Part shown: positions 980 through 20,886 of the stretch, piece by piece | How positions within the stretch are numbered: position 1 is the stretch's first letter | Layout: each line of letters starts with the position of its first letter | NCBI GenBank assembly: GCA_963169855.1 | Contig: CAUJCN010000002.1 | Location: forward strand, 69,508 to 133,507 | DNA length: 64,000 bases | Direction of reading: 5' to 3' | DNA from: Patescibacteria group bacterium | GTDB taxonomy: Bacteria > Patescibacteriota > Dojkabacteria > J137 | Notes under the pieces: model-generated | Databases searched by the model: none | What the model saw: the letters and a program-made list of their open reading frames with translations, nothing else | What the model was told of the DNA's origin: nothing | Program-made: the position numbers and the translations under genes

Positions 980-3900
980 TTATTCGTCTCGTCTTCCAGC
1001 GTATAGATATACACCAGTTCCTCCTCCGATAACAATAATTATTAGTAATAGAATCCACCAGTTAAATCCATTTCCTCCGTTATCTTGAACCCCAAGAACG
1101 AAGTTGAAGTTTTCGACAGCGTCATCAGTAATGCTAACTTCTTTATCAGAAGCTCCTAATACCGAGAAGTTGTCTGGAATATCATTTCTATCGATTCTGA
1201 TATTGTAATTTCCAGGACAAATTTCGAATTCATAAGATCCGTCTGCAGCAGTAGTTTCCTCTGCAACAATTACTTCATCTCCGTTTTCGATATAGTAAAC
1301 CTGAACTAGAACTCCAGCAATTCCTTGCTCTCCAGATTCCTGAGTATTGTTTTTATTAATATCATCGAATACTGATCCAGATAGTGTGAATCTTTCGTCA
1401 CAAGTCTGAACTCCGCTTCCTAAGATATCTTGTTCATCATCCTCTTCTTCAGAAGGTTCTGGTGTCTGAGGTCCGCTGTTTCCAACTCCTAGAACAGATC
1501 CTACAATCACTGGAACTGAAGCAACTGCTACATCAGCATCGCTATCAGAAACTGTTACAGTACATACATAGTTTCCAGCAGTTAAATTCATTGCGTTAGA
1601 TACAAAGATTGATGATCCAGTATTTACTACAGATCCTGCACATACGCCTCCAAACGTGAAGTTGTAGTTTGGATTTCCTAAGTTGTTTAGACTTGCTGTA
1701 ATTGTAAAGCTACTTCCAGCTGTTACGTTTACTGTTCCAGAATTATTAGTTGCTGGAGAGTTTCCAAATAATACTACTGTTGGTAGCAAATCTGTTATAA
1801 CCGCAGGATTAACAACTACAGTCTTTTCTGCAGTCGCTGTATCTCCATCAAAGTCTTCAACAGTTACTTTACATGTGTATGAACCTGGAGTTGCTGGTGT
1901 AACAACAAACTCAGCATTTCCTGTACATCCTGCAAAGTTTCCATCAGCCCAAGTGTAAGTAAATGGTGCGTTTCCTCCTAATACATTAGCGTCCATTGTG
2001 ATCGCTTCTAGAGTTGTTGAGTCTCCAGGTGTAGTAGCAATTGACACCGAAGGTGCATTGTTTGTTACTGTAACTGTTACAGAATCACATCCGCACATTC
2101 CCTCGCCGTTTCCTGTTGCATAGAATTCAACAACTTCTTCATAATCCTCTGTTAATAGATCATAAACTGGCTCTTCTTCTTCGATTTCACACATAACTGG
2201 GTGACACCAGTCTCCTTCCCATCCATAATCAACAAAGTCAGCTAATGCCGCAAATGATGCTACCTTAGCATACTTATAGAATGATTCGCTTTCACAAACC
2301 ATTAGAGTAACTTCGTATTCTCCTTCATGAGTGTAAGTATGACTTGGAATTGTAATGTTTCCAGGTGTTGATTGAGAGAATGTTGTGCTTGATCCGTCTC
2401 CGTAATCAACTACAATTACCCAATCAGAATCGTCAGGAGTTTCTCTGTTATCGCAGTAAACCTCTGATTCAGAAATGCTAAGCAATGTGAATCCTTCTTC
2501 GTATTCTGTCTCGCTCTCACCTTCTATACAACTTGGATCTGAGAACCAACCTGTAAATATTGCTTCTTCACCTTCTGTTATAGTTTGATCACTTTCAATA
2601 TCTACAGATGGAATTACATTTTCAATATAGTAATTTACTGAATATATTTCACTTTCATTTCCTGCTTCATCTACAACATAATAAGAAACTTCGTAAGCTC
2701 CTTCGTGAAGGAATGAAGTATCCCAATGTGTAATTCCAGCATCAGCTAACAATTGAGCAATATCCCATGTATATTCTGTGTTTTCAACTAATGAATCAGC
2801 GTAACATCCTAAGTCAGTCTCTCCTATTGGTGACCAAGTCAGATAGAAGCAAACTTCAGCGATATCAAAATTATCGTTTGCAGTCAGATCCCATAGTGTT
2901 GGAATTGAATCGCCTTCGTAGAATGTTGCATCTTGCAACTGATTTTCTTCAGCAACAGTAGGAGCTGTTGTGTCGATTATAAATGGTCCGTAGTGAGCTG
3001 TACTTGTCCAGTTTCCAACGTTGTCCACTGTGCTTAAATTGAACCACCAAACTCCGTCAGCTAAAGGTGTACTTGTAGCTTCGTTATCAGTTTCTTCCAA
3101 ATCCTTTACTTGATCTGGTGTAGAAGGTGCAGGTGTAAAATCGTATGAATATCCATCAACTCCTGATTTATTATCAACGCCTCCGTTTAACCATGATACC
3201 CAAACAGTATTATCGTTTGAAGGTGTGTTAATTGCAGGATCAGATGTAAATCCTGACGGATCTGCTGAAGGAATCTGAGAATCAACTCTTAAATTGTAGA
3301 TTACATTACTTTCTTCCCAGTGACCTGCAGAGTCTTTGACTCTCATTTGGAAATCATAAACAGAATTGTGTGTTAATCCTGAAAGATTTACTACACAAGT
3401 TGCGTCTAATCCAACTGGTGTTAATACTCCGTTAATCCAGCCTGACCATAGTAATCTCTTGTATCTAGCCTGACATTCTGTGATAGGACTTACAGTATCG
3501 GAAACTGTAGATGTTAAAGTAGGCGAACCATTCGTGTAGTTTCCCGAAACCGGAGTTACATTAAATGTATTAAAATCTGGATCTCTACTATCAGCAATTC
3601 TTTCGATAAATTCTCCATATCCGATGTTTCCAACATTGTCCTCAACTCTTACATTAATTTCTAATTCATCTCCATCAGTTTCGAATAAACTTCCAGATAC
3701 GCATCTTCCGAATAAGTATAACCCTGGAGTCCAATCTGAGCTTTCTGGGTTTGATACGTTGAAGTTTGTAGTTACTGCACAAGTGAATGGATTAATTCCC
3801 GCAACTGCATCAGAAACGTTTGCTCTGATTAAGAATGCGATTCCATTAACGTATGGGTCATAATCTGCAACAACCTCGATAGGTCCAACTGTAGGAGCTG

Positions 3901-5923
3901 TGTTATCTACAACAATTGTTCTTGAAGTAGCTTTTGTGTTTCCAGCTTCGTCTGTAGCAGCAGTTCTTAAAGTATAAGTTCCATCTGCTAATGTAGTTGT
4001 ATCAATATCACAATTGAATGTGAATGATGTTCCCCCGATTGATGAGTCTGCAGGAGTTGATCCGCAAGGCATTAAGAAAACAGTATTAGTATCGTTGTAA
4101 ACATTTACAGCAACTCTTTTCAACATCATATTATCTGTAGCGTGAACTTCAACGTTGTACGTTCCACCAACAATCATTCCATCTGAAGAAGGATCTACAA
4201 ATGAAATTCCTGGCTTAGTATTATCAACAAAGAATGTGTTTGTATCCATGCCCCAGGCGATGTCTTCGTCTAGAAACTGAGCTGAGAATACATACATTCC
4301 ATCTGGGTTTGTAGTTGTATCATAAGCACAAGTTACATCAAGTGAATCTCCTAAAAGATCTGCTCCTGGTGCTTCCTGACAATTTCCTACCAAGTTAGCA
4401 GGTCCGCTTTCGAATGCATCTTTCCAGAATCTTAAGTAGTAGCTGCCCATTCCAGAGTCATCGGTTGCTAAAGCTCTTCCTGTGATCGATCCTCTAACAT
4501 AAGAGTTTTCTACAGGTGTAACGATTGTTACAGATGGAGCTTCGTTAGGGATAACTGGGTCCTGTTCGAAGTCGTAAGTAATGTGATTAATCTGAACTTT
4601 GTCTACAACGATGTTCCATGAAGGATTCCAGTTTCCTAATCCAACACTTACAGCTCTTACAACTGCTGAAGGTGTAACACCAGGAATTGAGCTTAGAGGT
4701 TGATTTGAGTCATATCCTCCAGCTGGGTTCCATGAACCCCAGAATAAACCTCCATCAACATCCCATGTCTGCCATACATTATCTAAAACTGTTTCGTTGT
4801 AATAAGGTTCGTAAACAATATATTGATCAATAGATCCGTTTCCTTCATTGTCGATTCCTAATCTGAATGCTGCTCCAGCAAATTCAGGACCAGATACTTT
4901 CTTAGCGTCGAAACTTAAATTTGTAATTTCGCTTAGAGGAATTTCTACCGATAAAGTAGTTCTGCTTCTAGAAGCTGTAGTTTCGTCTGTAATTAGTTCT
5001 AATGCTCCAACCGGTAATGGTGAATCTGGTTGAGAAATGAAATTCACTTGAGCTCCACTTTCTGCAACAACAGACCATCCCTGCATTTCTGAAGGTCTAA
5101 CAATGTATGTTACTGGATCAGGAGTAGTTGGATTCGAGTAAGTAATAGAACATTCTGCTGACCATCCACTAACGTAAGGTGCAGTTGCTCTAACTTTAAA
5201 TGTATACGTTCCTTCACCTTCTGTGAATGCTCCAACGTAAGAATTTGTTCCTACTGTTGTTGTCCATTCTGGGAGACCAGGTGTTGTAACATGATATTCA
5301 TATTGAGTAGCTCCATCAAATGCATCCCATTGAGCTGTAACATCATAACTTTCTGTTGTAGATCCACAGGCTAATGTTTCTGGAGTTGGGATTTCCCATC
5401 TTAGATTCTGAGGAACACCCTGACAAGCAAATGAATTTAGGCTTGTAACAATATTATAATTTAGAGTATCTAAATTACCGATTGGAGTCATAGTTGCATC
5501 AACAACTCTAACTTCCCATCCTGCTAAACCTGCTGGACTATCTCCGCTGTTATCTAAGAAGATATTTGCGTTGATTCCTGATACATTAAGAGTTCCTAGA
5601 GTTGCAAGGTTGAACCAAGAACTGAATGAACCACCGTTAATAAAGTATCTTCCCTCTAAAGTATATTCGTCGTACCAATTTTGTACGCTTACTTCAAGAC
5701 CATCATTTGCAATCGCAGAACCGATTCCGCAAGCATTTCCTCCCACAAGCTGAGATGTAGATTCAACAATATCTACAACTGGTGCTGCAACAGGAAAACT
5801 TACTGGTAGTGGTTCAGCCTTTACATAGCTAATGAAAACCATTGGGTTAATCTGAAGTAAAAGTAGGGATGCGAGAACGGTAGATATGATTACACGCCTC
5901 AATCTAGTGGATTGAAAATTCAT
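980..5923 (-). CDS. giant multi-domain surface protein (adhesin-like) with N-terminal signal peptide and C-terminal TM anchor
   Basis: ORF 980..5992. Likely start at Met24 (5923) giving signal peptide MNFQSTRLRRVIISTVLASLLLLQ. Repeated Ig-like junctions (VDNTAPTV, IDTTAPTV, VDNTKPG), a PKD-like motif (VVDYGDGSS...HTYTHEGEYEV), a Cna-B/SdrD-B-like C-terminal domain (SGSVFDDINKN...GNYNIRIDRNDIPDNF), an acidic linker and a C-terminal hydrophobic helix with RRDE tail. Confidence 0.8.
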   Translation of the reverse strand: MNFQSTRLRRVIISTVLASLLLLQINPMVFISYVKAEPLPVSFPVAAPVVDIVESTSQLVGGNACGIGSAIANDGLEVSVQNWYDEYTLEGRYFINGGSFSSWFNLATLGTLNVSGINANIFLDNSGDSPAGLAGWEVRVVDATMTPIGNLDTLNYNIVTSLNSFACQGVPQNLRWEIPTPETLACGSTTESYDVTAQWDAFDGATQYEYHVTTPGLPEWTTTVGTNSYVGAFTEGEGTYTFKVRATAPYVSGWSAECSITYSNPTTPDPVTYIVRPSEMQGWSVVAESGAQVNFISQPDSPLPVGALELITDETTASRSRTTLSVEIPLSEITNLSFDAKKVSGPEFAGAAFRLGIDNEGNGSIDQYIVYEPYYNETVLDNVWQTWDVDGGLFWGSWNPAGGYDSNQPLSSIPGVTPSAVVRAVSVGLGNWNPSWNIVVDKVQINHITYDFEQDPVIPNEAPSVTIVTPVENSYVRGSITGRALATDDSGMGSYYLRFWKDAFESGPANLVGNCQEAPGADLLGDSLDVTCAYDTTTNPDGMYVFSAQFLDEDIAWGMDTNTFFVDNTKPGISFVDPSSDGMIVGGTYNVEVHATDNMMLKRVAVNVYNDTNTVFLMPCGSTPADSSIGGTSFTFNCDIDTTTLADGTYTLRTAATDEAGNTKATSRTIVVDNTAPTVGPIEVVADYDPYVNGIAFLIRANVSDAVAGINPFTCAVTTNFNVSNPESSDWTPGLYLFGRCVSGSLFETDGDELEINVRVEDNVGNIGYGEFIERIADSRDPDFNTFNVTPVSGNYTNGSPTLTSTVSDTVSPITECQARYKRLLWSGWINGVLTPVGLDATCVVNLSGLTHNSVYDFQMRVKDSAGHWEESNVIYNLRVDSQIPSADPSGFTSDPAINTPSNDNTVWVSWLNGGVDNKSGVDGYSYDFTPAPSTPDQVKDLEETDNEATSTPLADGVWWFNLSTVDNVGNWTSTAHYGPFIIDTTAPTVAEENQLQDATFYEGDSIPTLWDLTANDNFDIAEVCFYLTWSPIGETDLGCYADSLVENTEYTWDIAQLLADAGITHWDTSFLHEGAYEVSYYVVDEAGNESEIYSVNYYIENVIPSVDIESDQTITEGEEAIFTGWFSDPSCIEGESETEYEEGFTLLSISESEVYCDNRETPDDSDWVIVVDYGDGSSTTFSQSTPGNITIPSHTYTHEGEYEVTLMVCESESFYKYAKVASFAALADFVDYGWEGDWCHPVMCEIEEEEPVYDLLTEDYEEVVEFYATGNGEGMCGCDSVTVTVTNNAPSVSIATTPGDSTTLEAITMDANVLGGNAPFTYTWADGNFAGCTGNAEFVVTPATPGSYTCKVTVEDFDGDTATAEKTVVVNPAVITDLLPTVVLFGNSPATNNSGTVNVTAGSSFTITASLNNLGNPNYNFTFGGVCAGSVVNTGSSIFVSNAMNLTAGNYVCTVTVSDSDADVAVASVPVIVGSVLGVGNSGPQTPEPSEEEDDEQDILGSGVQTCDERFTLSGSVFDDINKNNTQESGEQGIAGVLVQVYYIENGDEVIVAEETTAADGSYEFEICPGNYNIRIDRNDIPDNFSVLGASDKEVSITDDAVENFNFVLGVQDNGGNGFNWWILLLIIIVIGGGTGVYLYAGRRDE

Positions 5924-6339
5924 ATAAATGAATATAAAAATTACACAGTAAAATAATTCAATTATAGCATCAAGATTTTTTTTTGCAGGCAAAATACACT
6001 ATAGGAAAAAAGTCTATATATGAATGAGCTTTGCTATTCTGTTTCTAATCGTGTAAACCTAGCAATTTGTTTTCCATTAACTGTTAGTTTCTCTAAAAAG
6101 TTTTCGATAGTTCTAACGAAGTTCACTCCTTCAAATTCTACGTAATCTGGAGAATAGACTACCCCAACTTCTTCTGTAGATTCAATAATTACGATATCAC
6201 TTATTGTATAGGTCTTCTCAACGCTTTTATAGTGAACATATTTATCACCTATATTGATAAGCTTTTTTGCATCTGCAATTTTAAGTTTTCTTCAGGTGAG
6301 TGCATACGGTTTAAAGTCGTTATAAAATAATAGTAATTA

Positions 6340-6771
6340 TTGCAGAAAAATATGCCACAAGCAAAATTAAAAACTCAAACAACTTCAGATGACCCAATAA
6401 AATTCATTGACTCTGTTGAGGATTTAGAGAAAAAAGAGATGAGCAAAATGATTTTAAAAATGATGGAAAGAGCTACTAAATCTAAGGCGAAGATGTGGGG
6501 AGAAACTATAGTTGGGTTTGGTGATGTCCATCTAAAGTATGAAAGCGGGAGAGAACTTGATTGGTTTAAAATGGGATTCTCACCAAGAAAAGGGCAAATG
6601 ACTTTGTACATCTTGAATGGATCTAATGAACAGAAAAAGCATTTGGACAAACTGGGTAAGTTTACAACTGGAAAAGGTTGTCTTTACATTAAGAAACTTG
6701 AAGATATAAATGTTGATGTTCTAGAAGATCTGATCAACGTTTCCGCAGATAAGGCTTACGGTCAGCAATAA
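6340..6771 (+). CDS. DUF1801 (YdhG-like) family protein
   Basis: 143 aa; WGETIVGFG...YESGRELDWFKMGFSPRKGQMTLYIL matches the DUF1801 signature as I recall it. Confidence 0.55.
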   Translation: MQKNMPQAKLKTQTTSDDPIKFIDSVEDLEKKEMSKMILKMMERATKSKAKMWGETIVGFGDVHLKYESGRELDWFKMGFSPRKGQMTLYILNGSNEQKKHLDKLGKFTTGKGCLYIKKLEDINVDVLEDLINVSADKAYGQQ

Positions 6772-12374: not shown

Positions 12375-12740
12375 ATGGGAGTTCCTCAAAAGTACGCAGA
12401 TATCGATGACTATATTAAGAATTTCTCTCCTGAAGTTCAGGATGTATTAGAAAGAATTCGAAAATTAGTTCATAAAATTGCACCTGATGTAGAAGAGTCA
12501 ATTACTTACCATATGCCAACATTCAAAGTTGCGGGGAAAGGAATCATATACTTTGCTGCTTGGTCAAAACACGTTGCTTTTTACGCGCTCCCAGTAGATT
12601 TACCAGAATTCAAAGAAGAGTTTGCACCCTACATCCAGTCGAAAGGAACTGTTCAGTTTAAATTCGATGCACCAATGCCTTGGGACTTAATTGAAAAAGT
12701 AATTAAATATAGAGCTAAAAATCCAATTGATTACCAATAA
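12375..12740 (+). CDS. DUF1801 (YdhG-like) family protein, second paralog
   Basis: 121 aa; IDDYI...VQDVLERIRKLVHKIAPDVEESITYHMPTF...GKGIIYFAAWSKHVAFY pattern. Confidence 0.55.
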   Translation: MGVPQKYADIDDYIKNFSPEVQDVLERIRKLVHKIAPDVEESITYHMPTFKVAGKGIIYFAAWSKHVAFYALPVDLPEFKEEFAPYIQSKGTVQFKFDAPMPWDLIEKVIKYRAKNPIDYQ

Positions 12741-12743
12741 TTT

Positions 12744-13169
12744 ATGAAGGAAGTAAAGTTAGTACTTTTTAAATTTACGAAATACCTAGTAATAATAGGT
12801 TTCTTTTTAACATTTGGTTCTTTTATTATTGCAGGAAATTACGAAATAGCATTCACTGCTATTTTCGTTACAGGAACAATCATTCTAACTATTAGCCAAG
12901 GAGTTCTAAGTTATTCACCCTCGATTAAAAACGATTCATTACAAGATGAATTTACTAATTCGGGCAAGTCACTGTTTACATCATCAATTTGGCTTTTAAT
13001 ATCAGGGATATTTGTTTTCTTATACTTGGGAGTTATTCTTTTTTCTCAACTACAACCTGTTGTTTTAGAATCCATTAAAATAATTGTGCTGCTTCTTTAT
13101 AGTATTTCTTATCTATTTTTCGCGGAATCCTTTGTAAAAGGAATCAAAAAAGTAGAAGATATATTATAA
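12744..13169 (+). CDS. hypothetical membrane protein
   Basis: 141 aa, four predicted TM helices. Confidence 0.4.
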   Translation: MKEVKLVLFKFTKYLVIIGFFLTFGSFIIAGNYEIAFTAIFVTGTIILTISQGVLSYSPSIKNDSLQDEFTNSGKSLFTSSIWLLISGIFVFLYLGVILFSQLQPVVLESIKIIVLLLYSISYLFFAESFVKGIKKVEDIL

Positions 13170-16403: not shown

Positions 16404-16979
16404 ATGAAAAAAGTTAGAAACGCTGTCTTAGCCTCTTTTGGCTTACTTACACTTTTTGCTCCTGCTGTTAGTGCTCAATATTACTATTACTACGAAAGTT
16501 CACCAGAAGCTGGTGCATTTTTAGCTGGATTCGGTGTTTTATACCTTATCTTGTGCTTATGTGGAGGGTTAGTTGCTTTAGTTGCATATATCTTTACATC
16601 TATGCAGTATGCAAAGATTTTCGAGAAAAATGGAATGGCTGATAAGAAAGTATTGGCATTTATTCCTATCGCACAGAACTATTACTTAGCTAAAGCTGTG
16701 GGTGAAGATGAATACGCTTGGGTTCAAGTTGCAGTTCCATTGGGAATTTTAATCTCTATCCCACTTACATTCTTTATAATTGGATTCTGCATTCTTTTCC
16801 CTTTGGCAATTGTTGGTATTGTGTTCGGAGTTAAGCTTTGGTTAAAAGCTGCTGAAAGAATGGGACAAGACCAAATTTGGGGAATCGCTGCTTCTTTAGC
16901 AAGTTTCATTCCACTTGTTGGATATTTCATTCAACTTTATGCAATTTATGTAATTGCGGAAGGAACTGTAAAGAAATAG
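16404..16979 (+). CDS. secreted/membrane protein of unknown function (signal peptide plus 3-4 TM helices)
   Basis: 191 aa; signal peptide with AVSA|QYYYYY site; conceivably a pilin or VirB2/VirB3-like secretion component given the neighbouring VirB4-like gene, but no supporting motif. Confidence 0.45.
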   Translation: MKKVRNAVLASFGLLTLFAPAVSAQYYYYYESSPEAGAFLAGFGVLYLILCLCGGLVALVAYIFTSMQYAKIFEKNGMADKKVLAFIPIAQNYYLAKAVGEDEYAWVQVAVPLGILISIPLTFFIIGFCILFPLAIVGIVFGVKLWLKAAERMGQDQIWGIAASLASFIPLVGYFIQLYAIYVIAEGTVKK

Positions 16980-17003: not shown

Positions 17004-17040
17004 AAGACTAGAAGATTAAAATTCTAGTCTTTTCAATTTT
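17004..17040 (+). terminator. rho-independent terminator
   Basis: 10-bp stem aagactagaa / ttctagtctt with 8-nt loop, followed by ttcaatttt. Confidence 0.5.
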
Positions 17041-17121: not shown

Positions 17122-17793
17122 ATGGGAATTTTTGACTCAAGAAAAATTAGTACTCAAGACCATTTAGACATTGCTGATATTCGTGACGACTTAGTTGTTC
17201 TAAAGAACGGAAAAGTTGCAGTAGTTTTAGAAACATCTTCTTTAAACTTTGAACTGTTAGACCCAAAAGAACAGGATGGGAAAATAGGTTCATTTGCAGC
17301 ATTTTTAAATGCTATCAATTTTCCTATTCAAATTGTAATTAGAACTCAAAGAACTGACATTGCTAGGTATCAGAAATTGCTCGAAGAATATAAAGCAAAG
17401 ACAGCAACTCAGAAGGTTGTTCAACAAATTAATAACTACCAGGCTTTTGTGAACGAATTGACACAAACAACTCAAATTCTAGATAAAAGATTCTTTGCAA
17501 TAATTCCTACAATAAAGCTTCCTGTTATACAAACAAACATTATTAAGCAAATACTTGGAAGAGAAGAAATTCTAGAAAATATTCCTTCGATTGTCAGAAA
17601 AGCAAAAGAAGAGCTTTATCCTAAAAGAGATCATGTACTTAAACAGTTCGCAAATATGAACATCGCAGCAAAACAGTTAACTAACGATGAATTAATAAAA
17701 CTCTACTATTCTGTCTACGAACCTGATAAATTAGGTATTGAGGTACTTAACTTAAAGGCCGAAGATATCGGTAGTTCAATGGTAACTTCTTAA
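17122..17793 (+). CDS. virB4: VirB4/TrbE-family ATPase, N-terminal segment (ends at an in-frame TAA)
   Basis: 223 aa; DIADIRDDLVVLKNGKVAVVLETSSLNFELLDPKEQDGKIGSFAAFLNAINFPIQIVIRTQR resembles the VirB4/TrbE N-terminal region; same reading frame as the next ORF. Confidence 0.55.
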   Translation: MGIFDSRKISTQDHLDIADIRDDLVVLKNGKVAVVLETSSLNFELLDPKEQDGKIGSFAAFLNAINFPIQIVIRTQRTDIARYQKLLEEYKAKTATQKVVQQINNYQAFVNELTQTTQILDKRFFAIIPTIKLPVIQTNIIKQILGREEILENIPSIVRKAKEELYPKRDHVLKQFANMNIAAKQLTNDELIKLYYSVYEPDKLGIEVLNLKAEDIGSSMVTS

Positions 17794-17796
17794 ATT

Positions 17797-19638
17797 ATGG
17801 GATTATTTAGTTTATTATTTCCAAAATCAGATACAAAACCTGCAGTTAGCAAGGAAGAGGCTGCTATCCTGGATCAGGAAAGGAAGTCAGTGGAAAAATT
17901 TGCAAAAGGTTTGGTCGATGTAAAAGACATCATTGCACCATCAGCGATTGAGGTGAATTTCAACAATATGATTATCGGAAATAAATTTTTCAGATCATAC
18001 TTTGCAATTGGATTCCCTACTTTTGTTTCTCCAAGTTGGCTTGGACCACTAATCAATTTTGAATATCCTATCGATATTAGTACCTATTACTATCCAAACG
18101 ATACAGGTGATGTATTGAAACTTTTGAAAAGAAAAATTGCGGAACTTCAGGCAACAATTAATATCGAAATGGATGCTGGAAGACCAGCGGATCCAATTAT
18201 TCAAGAACAGTTGAAAAGTGCGATTTTGGTTCAAGAACAACTTGCTGCTGGGAATGAACAATTCTTTCAATATGCTTTATACATGACTGTTAGAGCTGAT
18301 ACGTTAGAAGAACTAGATAGAATTTCAAAGAACTTGGAATCTACTATGGCAACAATGGGCGTTGTTATTAAGGTAGCGACTCTTCAACAAGAAGAAGCTT
18401 TCCAAAGTACAATTCCTTACGGAATGGACAAGATTAACATGACTAGAAATCTTGATACCACAGCCATTGCTACAACATTCCCATTCGTAAGTTCGGAACT
18501 GACCATGGAAAAGGGAGTTTTGTATGGAATTAATTTACACAATAGTTCGTTAGTTATTTTTGATAGATTCTCTTTACCAAATGCAAATTCAGTAATTCTC
18601 GCTACTTCTGGAGCTGGTAAATCTTACGCAGTTAAACTAGAAGCAGTTAGATCTTTGATGCTTGGAACAGACATTATTATTATCGACCCCGAAAAAGAAT
18701 TTGATAGATTGTGTGCCGCTGTTGGAGGAGAATACATTTCTTTCTCTCAAGATGGTGCTCAAAAGTTGAATCCATTCGAATTATCAGGTGTTTACAGTCC
18801 AGATGAAGATGAGCTTAGATTCAAAATTCTTACACTTTCTGGTTTAATTAGAATTATGCTTGGAGGAAGCGTAACTGCAGAGGAAGGAGCGATCTTAGAT
18901 AGAGCTTTGATTTTGACCTATAAAGAAAAAGGAATTACTCCAGATCCATCGACGCATACAAAAGAAGCTCCTTTATTAGAAGACTTGTATAAAATTTTGA
19001 ACGCCATGTCCGAAGAGGAAGCACATTCGATGGCACGAAGATTGGAAAAATATATTCGAGGTTCTGCTGCTGGAGTTTTTGATCAAAAATCATCAGTGGA
19101 TATTAAAAATAATTTTACAGTTTTCAGTATTAGAGACTTGGCAGACGATTTAAGACCAATGGCCATGTACGTTATGTTGGATTTTATCTGGACAAAGATT
19201 AAACGAGATAAGAAAAAAAGGCTTCTACTTATCGACGAGGCTTGGATTATGATGCAGTATCCTGATGCAGCTAGGTTTGTATATTCAATTGCGAAAAGAG
19301 CTAGAAAATATGGGCTAGGTTTAACAACAATTACACAAGATGTAGACGACTTCCTAAGTTCAGATTTTGGAAAAGCAATCGTAAGTAACTCATCTATGCA
19401 GTTACTTTTAAAACAGTCTCCTTCAGCAATCGAAAAGATTCAGAAAGTTTTCTACCTGACAGAGGGAGAAAAAGAATTCTTAATGAGTGCTGGAATTGGA
19501 CAAGGATTATTCTTTGCAGGTGCAAACCATGTTGCTATGCAGGTTGTAGCAAGTGAAGATGAACATACTTTAATTACAACCAACCCTCAAGAATTACAAA
19601 GAATCCAAGAAGAAGAGAACGGTGGAATTACCTCTTGA
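17797..19638 (+). CDS. virB4: VirB4/TrbE/TraC-family secretion ATPase (main body)
   Basis: 613 aa; Walker A ILATSGAGKSY; IDPEKEF...GGEYISFS...LNPFEL; Walker B LLLIDEAWIMM (the VirB4-specific DEAW); TTITQDVDDF. Confidence 0.8.
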   Translation: MGLFSLLFPKSDTKPAVSKEEAAILDQERKSVEKFAKGLVDVKDIIAPSAIEVNFNNMIIGNKFFRSYFAIGFPTFVSPSWLGPLINFEYPIDISTYYYPNDTGDVLKLLKRKIAELQATINIEMDAGRPADPIIQEQLKSAILVQEQLAAGNEQFFQYALYMTVRADTLEELDRISKNLESTMATMGVVIKVATLQQEEAFQSTIPYGMDKINMTRNLDTTAIATTFPFVSSELTMEKGVLYGINLHNSSLVIFDRFSLPNANSVILATSGAGKSYAVKLEAVRSLMLGTDIIIIDPEKEFDRLCAAVGGEYISFSQDGAQKLNPFELSGVYSPDEDELRFKILTLSGLIRIMLGGSVTAEEGAILDRALILTYKEKGITPDPSTHTKEAPLLEDLYKILNAMSEEEAHSMARRLEKYIRGSAAGVFDQKSSVDIKNNFTVFSIRDLADDLRPMAMYVMLDFIWTKIKRDKKKRLLLIDEAWIMMQYPDAARFVYSIAKRARKYGLGLTTITQDVDDFLSSDFGKAIVSNSSMQLLLKQSPSAIEKIQKVFYLTEGEKEFLMSAGIGQGLFFAGANHVAMQVVASEDEHTLITTNPQELQRIQEEENGGITS

Positions 19639-19687
19639 CACGGATATCGAAAAATTATTTAATAGTGCTAGATATTAATATAAAACT

Positions 19688-20518
19688 ATGTTTGGAACAG
19701 AAAGTTTAAGAAATGCTTTACAAGATAATCTTGATTCAAAGAATAGATCTAGAACAGCAAAGATTACTAAAGGATTAATTGGTCCTGGATTAATGGCGTC
19801 TGGAGGAGGTGCAATGGTTGCTGGAGGAGCATTGGCAGCTACAGGAATGTTAGCTCCTATTATTCCATTTGGAGTACTTACTGCTGGAGCTGGAGTATTT
19901 ACAGTTGCAACAGCTAAAACCGTTTGGAACACAGGATGGGGAGTATTAGAAAGATTGAGAGAAAAAAGACAAGGTGTAGATGTCAGAAAACAAGCTGATG
20001 AGTACAAAAGACAAATGGATGCACTGGAATCAAAAATTGGATCTTCAACAAACCAGAAAGTAATTGATAAGGCAGAAAGAGCAAAAGACAGATTGATTGG
20101 ACAAGTAGAGCGAATGAATGTAAAAGCAAGTTCAAAAGAAATCGATGCTATTAGAACTGGGAATTTACCTGCCCAAAAGAACTTTGGCTCTGCAGCAAGA
20201 ACTACAGATAGAATAAGAAACACTTACGATGCTGGTCAAAGAGCAGAACTAGTTGCAGCAGCTAAAGAGGAGTTATCCGCAATTATTCAGTCGAATGTTA
20301 TGGATACAAGCGCAATAGCAGCAGAAATCAAAAGAATAACTAAACTTGATCAAAAGTTCACAGAAGCTGAGGCACAGGATTTAATAACGTACGCTAAGAA
20401 TGAAATCGCAGACAAAAAAGCATATGACAAAATGATAGCTGATTTGAATGACGATTTTAAAAAAGGAGCTGATCTTATTGATGCTGTTGACTGGGAAGAT
20501 GAGCTTACAAAACCTTAA
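19688..20518 (+). CDS. membrane protein with two Gly/Ala-rich TM helices and a long coiled-coil domain; unknown function
   Basis: 276 aa; N-terminus GLIGPGLMASGGGAMVAGGALAATGMLAPIIPFGVLTAGAGVFTVATA; rest is charged and helical. Confidence 0.45.
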   Translation: MFGTESLRNALQDNLDSKNRSRTAKITKGLIGPGLMASGGGAMVAGGALAATGMLAPIIPFGVLTAGAGVFTVATAKTVWNTGWGVLERLREKRQGVDVRKQADEYKRQMDALESKIGSSTNQKVIDKAERAKDRLIGQVERMNVKASSKEIDAIRTGNLPAQKNFGSAARTTDRIRNTYDAGQRAELVAAAKEELSAIIQSNVMDTSAIAAEIKRITKLDQKFTEAEAQDLITYAKNEIADKKAYDKMIADLNDDFKKGADLIDAVDWEDELTKP

Positions 20519-20538: not shown

Positions 20539-20886
20539 ATGGAAGAACTATTAAGAACATTAGTAAACACAATTTTAAATGAACAATCAGATGAGGACAG
20601 AGCTAAAGCATTAGAAGTGCTAATGAGTAATTCTGCAAGAACTCTGGTTGATAAAGTTGCAGGAAGTGCAAACGAAGACCAGCAAGCTCAACTCGATCAA
20701 ATCGAAGAGGAAGATATTACTTTAGGTGATGTTGTTAGAATCTTTTCAATTGATGCTATTAGAGATAGTATGACTGATGCAGTTGTAGAAGAAGCTGGAA
20801 AGTTCATCGAAGAAAACTCTGCTCTTGTTACTGACGAAAAGATTCAGCAAATTGAGTCTGTAGTTAATCAACTCCAAACTGTATAA
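20539..20886 (+). CDS. small acidic hypothetical protein
   Basis: 115 aa, D/E-rich. Confidence 0.4.
   Translation: MEELLRTLVNTILNEQSDEDRAKALEVLMSNSARTLVDKVAGSANEDQQAQLDQIEEEDITLGDVVRIFSIDAIRDSMTDAVVEEAGKFIEENSALVTDEKIQQIESVVNQLQTV

Follow-up and report, generated by a model that had tools for sequence, protein, structure and literature searches.

Adjoining trsD-like and virB4-type genes in a Dojkabacteria genome very probably encode a two-subunit VirB4

Is a gene for a VirB4-type secretion ATPase cut in two by a stop codon, or do two complete genes lie side by side? The question is raised by a 64,000-nucleotide (nt) stretch of a Dojkabacteria contig (CAUJCN010000002.1, positions 69,508 to 133,507 of the forward strand; assembly GCA_963169855.1), which is called the window here. 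On its plus strand, open reading frame (ORF) A, a trsD-like gene of 223 amino acids (aa; 17122..17793), ends at the TAA at 17791-17793, and ORF B, which encodes a VirB4-type ATPase core of 613 aa (17797..19638), starts at the ATG at 17797. The junction (17791..17799) reads TAA-ATT-ATG, with the ATT at 17794-17796 as a 3-nt gap between the stop of A and the start of B. A sequence-only reading of this DNA had noted that both ORFs share one frame, with TAA and one codon between them, and that they sum to 836 aa (223 + 613); the sequence agrees on each point. It had presented the locus as one VirB4 gene interrupted by an in-frame TAA and had offered recent pseudogenisation, a genuinely two-piece VirB4, stop-codon read-through or a base-call error as explanations. 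The comparisons reported here point to the two-piece option, on the strength of profile tiling and of the conservation of the split: A and B are very probably two intact, co-transcribed genes for a two-subunit VirB4 of a Patescibacterial, monoderm type IV secretion system (T4SS) of MPF-FATA-like type.

Two reading frames on one VirB4 profile

A single-chain VirB4 is expected to hold its complete N-terminal domain in one polypeptide, and B does not. B passes the curated cutoff of the NCBIfam family conju_CD1110 (NF045971; 397.8 bits, cutoff 325), with a match to profile positions 176-734 of 752. Its matches to VirB4_plasma (the Mbov_0397 family, NF045975) and TIGR00929 cover positions 292-893 of 894 and 239-726 of 792, and that to the TraC-F profile begins at position 274. 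Since B begins only at positions 176, 292, 239 and 274 of these profiles, the N-terminal domain of VirB4 is incomplete in it at the front: the initial ~175-290 positions are missing whichever full-length VirB4 model is used. The remainder of the domain is predicted at residues ~45-240 (17929..18516, plus strand), the part that directly follows the A domain in natural fusions; the Pfam models CagE_TrbE_VirB and TraC_F_IV give weak matches at residues 133-208. The RecA-like ATPase C-terminal domain, residues 260-590 (18574..19566, plus strand), was delimited by a phmmer match to residues 33-384 of 4ag5_A (E 1e-46), which is the VirB4 C-terminal domain of Thermoanaerobacter pseudethanolicus, and B also matches Pfam P-loop_TraG (E 3.2e-27). 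Three sequence motifs lie in B on the plus strand: a Walker A motif, ATSGAGKS (residues 269-276; 18601..18624), an NPF motif (18769..18777), and a Walker B or 'DEAW' motif, LLLIDEAW (residues 476-483; 19222..19245). By these matches, B is the second half of a VirB4 N-terminal domain joined to a RecA-like ATPase C-terminal domain.

The part that B is without corresponds to A. In VirB4_plasma, A matches positions 100-279 of 894 (E 7.7e-10). It also matches the NCBIfam model TrsD/TraD (NF041427) over positions 12-199 of 201 (E 3.2e-6, 27.1 bits), and it resembles that family in its end-to-end similarity, in its size as a stand-alone protein of ~200-230 aa and in its location directly 5' of a VirB4-type gene. 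On this profile evidence A is a remote TrsD homologue and not a member of NF041427 by the NCBI criterion. Quinonero-Coronel et al. (2025, Microb Genom, PMC12102498) describe TrsD itself as remotely homologous to the N-terminus of VirB4. Guglielmini et al. 2014, which that paper cites for the homology, does not contain the word TrsD in its main text, and the TrsD-VirB4 homology therefore rests on PMC12102498 and on the hidden Markov model (HMM) results given here. A precomputed match to PF26593 ('TraC-like') is on record for the protein identical to A and for all 120 of its best homologues. Our own Pfam scan of A did not list this model, which was probably missing from the scanned copy, and gave noise only (GmrSD_N, E 0.08); a phmmer search of A against PDB sequences returned nothing at E<=10. 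Comparison with homologues divides A into a conserved core (residues 8-205; 17143..17736, plus strand) and a variable tail (residues 206-223; 17737..17790, plus strand) that differs among homologues.

Two pieces of one protein are expected to fall on successive parts of a single profile. When a conceptual A+B chain was built, it aligned with VirB4_plasma in one stretch, positions 101-893 of 894, with 307 bits as against 263 for B alone, and with TIGR00929 at positions 18-726 of 792; in VirB4_plasma the separate pieces occupy successive positions, 100-279 and 292-893. As judged from these alignments, A and B together tile a full-length VirB4 profile, in which A supplies the part absent from B and corresponds to the first subdomain of the N-terminal domain. 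The sequence-only reading had compared the upstream piece with the VirB4 N-terminal domain, had called the downstream piece a VirB4 ATPase with Walker A, NPF and DEAW motifs, and had asked whether both would tile one profile. All of this was borne out, the ATPase assignment by the NCBIfam, Pfam and 4ag5 matches and the N-terminal assignment by the VirB4_plasma match; the homology claim is upheld because A matches exactly the part of VirB4 that B is without.

The N-terminal peptides of A and B are alike in Dojkabacteria (MG[ILV]F... in A and M[GA][LI][FL]... in B; 17122-17133 and 17797-17808 in the window; loci L001-L030 of the survey described below), and this shared motif is lost in more distant lineages. 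In a structural model of a fused relative, the A domain and the N-terminal region of B show a similar order of secondary-structure elements. An internal duplication is not claimed: hhalign of the A profile against the profile of the B N-terminal region gave a probability of 2.6%.

The junction in related loci and natural fusions

A recent nonsense mutation is expected to be missing from orthologues, whereas a true gene boundary should recur among them. Among the 120 best homologues of A, which carry the name Candidatus Dojkabacteria wherever a name is given, every one stands alone, with a length of 212-257 aa, down to 56% identity. In the 118 untruncated ones the coverage of A is 98-100%, and the C-terminal tails of the homologues differ in length and sequence in the way of real termini. 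An exhaustive search with A against 1.8 billion representatives returned 1,506 clusters at E<=1e-3, and among the top 150 of these a fusion to the ATPase was seen in one cluster, with Q/P/S/T-rich tails in many others. Such tails, 100-500 aa long and presumably disordered, are carried by many of the TrsD-like homologues outside Dojkabacteria (representatives P0171-P0265), unlike A of the window, whose tail has only 18 residues.

Conservation of the junction was assessed in a scan that took one genome per species and gave 80 loci from Dojkabacteria, WWE3, Curtiss-, Shapiro-, Beckwith-, Woyke- and Amesbacteria, 78 of which reach far enough for the junction to be judged. Identity to the window proteins ranges from 34 to 93% for A and from 54 to 96% for B. 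The A homologue ends at a stop with a VirB4 start close by in 77 of the 78 loci and is fused to VirB4 in one, and adjacency of the two holds in all 78. Within the 77 split loci the junction is abutting or overlapping in 73 (ATGA, TAATG or TAAnATG; -23 to +25 nt), and the other four have gaps of 47, 49, 97 and 651 nt. Orthologous loci were where the sequence-only reading had proposed to look for the same stop, and its presence in 77 of 78 leaves the headline of an 'interrupted' gene without support. On the evidence of these loci, the A/B split is ancient and conserved.

The shared frame is not conserved along with the split. Relative to A, B lies in the +2 frame in 41 loci, in the +1 frame in 26 and in frame 0 in 11, so that it is out of A's frame in 67 of 78, the two nearest relatives included. 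In these two (L001, with 93% identity for A and 96% for B, and L002, with 89% and 93%) the junction is TAAtATG, which moves B to the +1 frame; that A and B share a frame in the window is thus a 2-nt coincidence. An unrelated pair in the window (12375-12740 and 12744-13169), which encodes one DUF1801 protein and one unknown protein, is likewise separated by a stop and 3 nt in frame, and 12 of 39 neighbour pairs on the same strand are -11 to +10 nt apart. Frame sharing between A and B is unremarkable in view of that identical spacing and of these close neighbours: it is no more than chance gives, and in-frame 3-nt junctions are routine in the compact genome of the window.

Some of the public records that entered the survey carry titles at odds with their content. 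Several contigs with a Patescibacteria-type trsD-virB4 pair bear the title 'uncultured Gammaproteobacteria' or 'Pseudomonadales' (TPA_asm), and Dojkabacteria-like contigs that of 'Candidatus Saccharibacteria'; both are probably taxonomic mislabels. The loci behind this remark are L039-L044, L048, L050, L052, L055, L058-L061, L064, L066, L067, L073 and L074.

Natural fusions are also found. The one fused locus of the 78, L080 from Amesbacteria, has a single 821-aa ORF (3893-6359 of that locus) that matches CD1110 at positions 25-735 of 752 and TIGR00929 at 8-726 of 792. When this protein served as query, 40 of its 120 best matches were themselves fused: 39 of 738-860 aa with PF26593 and ATPase domains, and one of 1,429 aa with an intein as well. 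The other matches were unfused proteins of ~580-670 aa or intein-bearing ones of 1,158-1,215 aa. Fused examples from Amesbacteria-like lineages include P0271-P0293, P0316 and P0327, among others. The fused Patescibacterial forms are without the tail of A and without roughly the first 44 residues of B; in P0229, for example, residues 212-773 align to B residues 45-606. On a rough neighbour-joining tree of the ATPase part, fused forms stand in several separate places among split ones, which suggests repeated fusion or fission. A structural model of a fused relative forms one compact VirB4 that superimposes on TrwK/VirB4 of R388 over 682 residues. This R388 protein (PDB 7O41/7O42) is a single chain from a diderm system, with ~13% sequence identity. 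Single-chain monoderm VirB4 proteins (CD1110, NF045971; Mbov_0397, NF045975) occupy the same profile positions as A plus B; compared with these and with fused forms such as P0271 (Amesbacteria), the window has the first ~200 residues as a separate polypeptide.

Inteins were a further observation among Patescibacterial VirB4 homologues of 1,158-1,429 aa, where intein or homing-endonuclease domains (PF14528, PF14890) occur in P0311, P0313, P0317, P0321, P0332, P0347, P0353, P0369, P0376 and P0378. P0376 combines a TrsD-like domain, VirB4 and an intein.

Explanations for the stop codon and for A

If the TAA were a lesion, a once-continuous 836-aa VirB4 would recently have gained it and would now be decaying. 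The common frame, with just TAA and one codon between the ORFs, and the existence of single-chain VirB4 proteins of similar length, including fused Patescibacterial forms of 783-860 aa, are what speak for such a pseudogene. The conserved stop does not fit it, being kept in 77 of the 78 loci even where identity in A falls to 34%; neither do the out-of-frame B in 67 of 78 loci, nearest relatives included, and the stand-alone state of all 120 best A homologues. B, moreover, has its own ATG, and its N-terminus (M-G/A-L/I-F/L...) is kept in 20 of the 30 closest loci and varies in more distant ones. Compared with the two nearest relatives, both genes have pN of 0.03-0.06 against a saturated pS of 0.72-0.81, values that point to strong purifying selection on A and B. 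The stop is thus present in orthologues and constraint on the pieces is not relaxed, the reverse of what a nonsense pseudogene would show; the conserved stop and low pN refute this option of the sequence-only reading, to which we give next to no probability. A false stop from a base-call or assembly error has equally little chance of being the answer. It has in its favour only the general possibility that attends an AT-rich genome assembled from metagenomes, and it is refuted by independent assemblies: the 50-nt junction is identical in those of five different runs (ERR10655377, ERR10655380, ERR10655381, ERR10655382 and SRR24928191), the whole 2,517-nt A-B region shows 0 mismatches where it is available in them, and a stop stands at the same place in relatives of 89-93% identity. 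A functional single chain could still be made if the TAA were recoded by programmed read-through; both cistrons are in frame in the window strain, and the product would be much like natural fusions of 834-842 aa, among them P0292 (836 aa). TAA is, however, the commonest stop in the window (36 of 59 ORFs), and with all three stop codons in use the genetic code is standard. No tRNA or structural recoding signal was found near the A-B junction, the tail of A differs among homologues in both length and sequence, which fits a true C-terminus, and the in-frame layout is not kept even at 89-93% identity, where the TAAtATG junctions put B in the +1 frame. Read-through is not needed to explain the locus and is extremely unlikely. 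The 2-nt difference from the nearest relatives (TAAtATG to TAAattATG) places trsD and virB4 in one frame and leaves the locus one point mutation away from an 838-aa single-chain VirB4 (223 + 613 plus two junction codons), close in length to natural fusions such as P0292. A related idea, which we regard as very unlikely, is that low-level read-through of the TAA already gives some full-length protein; the locus would then be an observable intermediate in the turnover between fused and split forms that Amesbacteria-like lineages show.

One rival alone carries some weight, though it too is improbable; it accepts two intact genes and concerns the role of A, which would be an independent accessory or regulatory protein of VirB4 N-terminal ancestry and no structural part of an ATPase with B. 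In favour of this, TrsD is without an assigned function and stands apart from virB4 in Gracilibacteria (PMC12102498), long Q/P/S/T-rich tails for which mere domain replacement would have no use are present on many homologues, and conservation is lower in A than in B (34-93% against 54-96% identity). Against an accessory A stand its adjacency to VirB4 in all 78 informative loci, the natural fusions in several places on the rough tree, the modelling of a fused relative as a compact VirB4 with its 682-residue superposition on TrwK, and the lack, in B alone, of the initial 175-290 positions in all full-length VirB4 profiles. Several points also weigh against the two-subunit VirB4 itself. The score of A, 27.1 bits, is far under the curated NF041427 cutoff of 200. 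The structural argument comes from the model of a fused relative and not from the A-B pair of the window, for which the complex is putative. VirB3/PrgI, VirB6, VirB2 and VirD4 were not recognised in the 64-kb window by a Pfam and NCBIfam scan of 34 larger ORFs, the flanks of A-B included, which small or divergent membrane proteins could escape. Finally, the separation of TrsD from virB4 in Gracilibacteria means that an obligatory 1:1 complex is not proven.

Precedents, genomic context and proposed role

The two-subunit VirB4 proposed for A and B has precedents, and the arrangement is already described and its biology ordinary. On the staphylococcal plasmids pGO1/pSK41, TrsD/TraD and TrsE/TraE have the same gene order as the window pair, although the relationship is remote. 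In pSK41, a VirB4-like gene of 672 aa follows trsD (227 aa, 'TrsD/TraD family') after a gap of 14 nt, compared with 3 nt in the window, and a 135-aa gene before trsD, annotated as hypothetical, sits where the VirB3-like TrsC is expected. By hhalign, A residues 5-200 match pSK41 TrsD residues 28-216 (178 columns, E 2.8e-5, probability 74%), and B from residue 19 onward aligns to TrsE from residue 10 onward (E 1e-34, 24% identity). Because B aligns with TrsE from near the start and A with TrsD end to end, the split point is the same as that of TrsD and TrsE of pSK41. The pGO1/pSK41 system is conjugative and has a relaxase and a coupling protein, whereas the window pair is chromosomal and neither was found in the window.

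A closer precedent is the Patescibacterial TrsD and VirB4 pair, which has the same layout of a small TrsD-like gene directly upstream of a chromosomal MPF-FATA-related VirB4 (PMC12102498). According to that study, Patescibacteria hold 2,272 TrsD homologues, 1,664 of them adjoining virB4. It gives TrsD beside virB4 as the type IV secretion component that is most abundant in the group; a TrsD homologue is listed as essential in Southlakia epibionticum ML1. Wang et al. (2023, Cell, PMC10633639) found that the T4SS of S. epibionticum is essential for its epibiotic growth, and neither a coupling protein nor a relaxase was recognizable in it.

A and B lie among housekeeping genes, for a CobW-family GTPase, a methyltransferase, tRNA-guanine transglycosylase (TGT), PheS, EF-P, UvrA, DnaK and tRNA synthetases, including one of aspartyl/asparaginyl-tRNA synthetase type. 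The setting is chromosomal, and no relaxase domain was found in the window. A gene for a PrgI/VirB3-like membrane protein (PF12666) lies directly upstream of the trsD-like gene in 54 of the 80 related loci (L023 2733-3983, L045 2316-3983, L068 2797-3981 and 51 more), unlike the window pair, which stands alone. These proteins often have a long low-complexity region and a C-terminal carboxypeptidase-regulatory-like domain. The gene is absent upstream of A in the window and in its closest relatives, and a tblastn search of the window with the PrgI-like neighbour of L023 gave no match. The flanking genes at 16404-16979, 19688-20518 and 20539-20886 show no T4SS family matches and were not assigned to the system; homologues of the flanks occur only in the two closest loci, apart from one weak, out-of-position match to 16404-16979 in L024. 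On the minus strand, a 182-aa ORF with a GTG start (19675-20223) overlaps the plus-strand ORF at 19688-20518 (276 aa) almost completely; the former is probably spurious, and the latter is the one called in public assemblies. A 1,670-aa ORF at 980-5992 (minus strand), with Ig-like, PKD and SdrD-B domains, probably encodes a large surface adhesin. In 14 related loci a dnaN-like (beta-clamp) gene, identified by eye from its translation, lies next to virB4 (for example L040 6545-7657, minus strand), which agrees with the published finding that T4SS genes of Patescibacteria often lie close to the replication origin (PMC12102498).

Between the upstream membrane-protein gene and A, a terminator-like scan flagged a palindromic hairpin with a 10-bp stem and a T-rich tail (17004..17031, plus strand); the scan placed it on the minus strand, and the stem is palindromic. 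The hairpin is probably a terminator that sets A-B apart as a transcription unit, and A and B probably share one transcript, since the hairpin precedes A and no promoter fits into the 3-nt gap. A Shine-Dalgarno motif at -20 to -4 was found for 2 of 49 long ORFs or genes of the window; its absence before 17797 is thus normal, the genome being essentially free of such sites. Many starts in the window have a TATAAT-like box 6-12 nt upstream of the ATG (e.g. 62774, 62043, 45947 on the minus strand, 22652 and 13177), which suggests widespread leaderless or very short-leader mRNAs. Translation of B would start at its own ATG (17797), and the probable route is termination-reinitiation coupling at TAA-ATT-ATG, which would tie the output of B to that of A.

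Following translation, A would bind B non-covalently and rebuild a complete VirB4 N-terminal domain, which would dock the ATPase hexamer onto a membrane subunit of VirB3/PrgI type. In R388, VirB3 wraps around the VirB4 N-terminal domain (PMC9259494), and the order VirB3-TrsD-VirB4 in related loci is that proposed for pSK41; on these two grounds A is likeliest to be the docking module between membrane subunit and ATPase, with the VirB3 contact in the window only extrapolated from R388. The assembled machine may power a chromosomal, relaxase-less secretion system that serves an epibiotic lifestyle rather than conjugation.

For annotation, these results mean that neighbouring in-frame ORFs should be neither joined nor marked as pseudogenes in compact genomes of Patescibacteria, and that the trsD-like gene should be named as a VirB4 ATPase subunit. 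The biological value is modest: comparative and structural-model support for TrsD as the detached first subdomain of the VirB4 N-terminal domain, a domain that contacts VirB3 in solved systems and would here belong to a T4SS of the kind reported to be essential for the epibiotic lifestyle.

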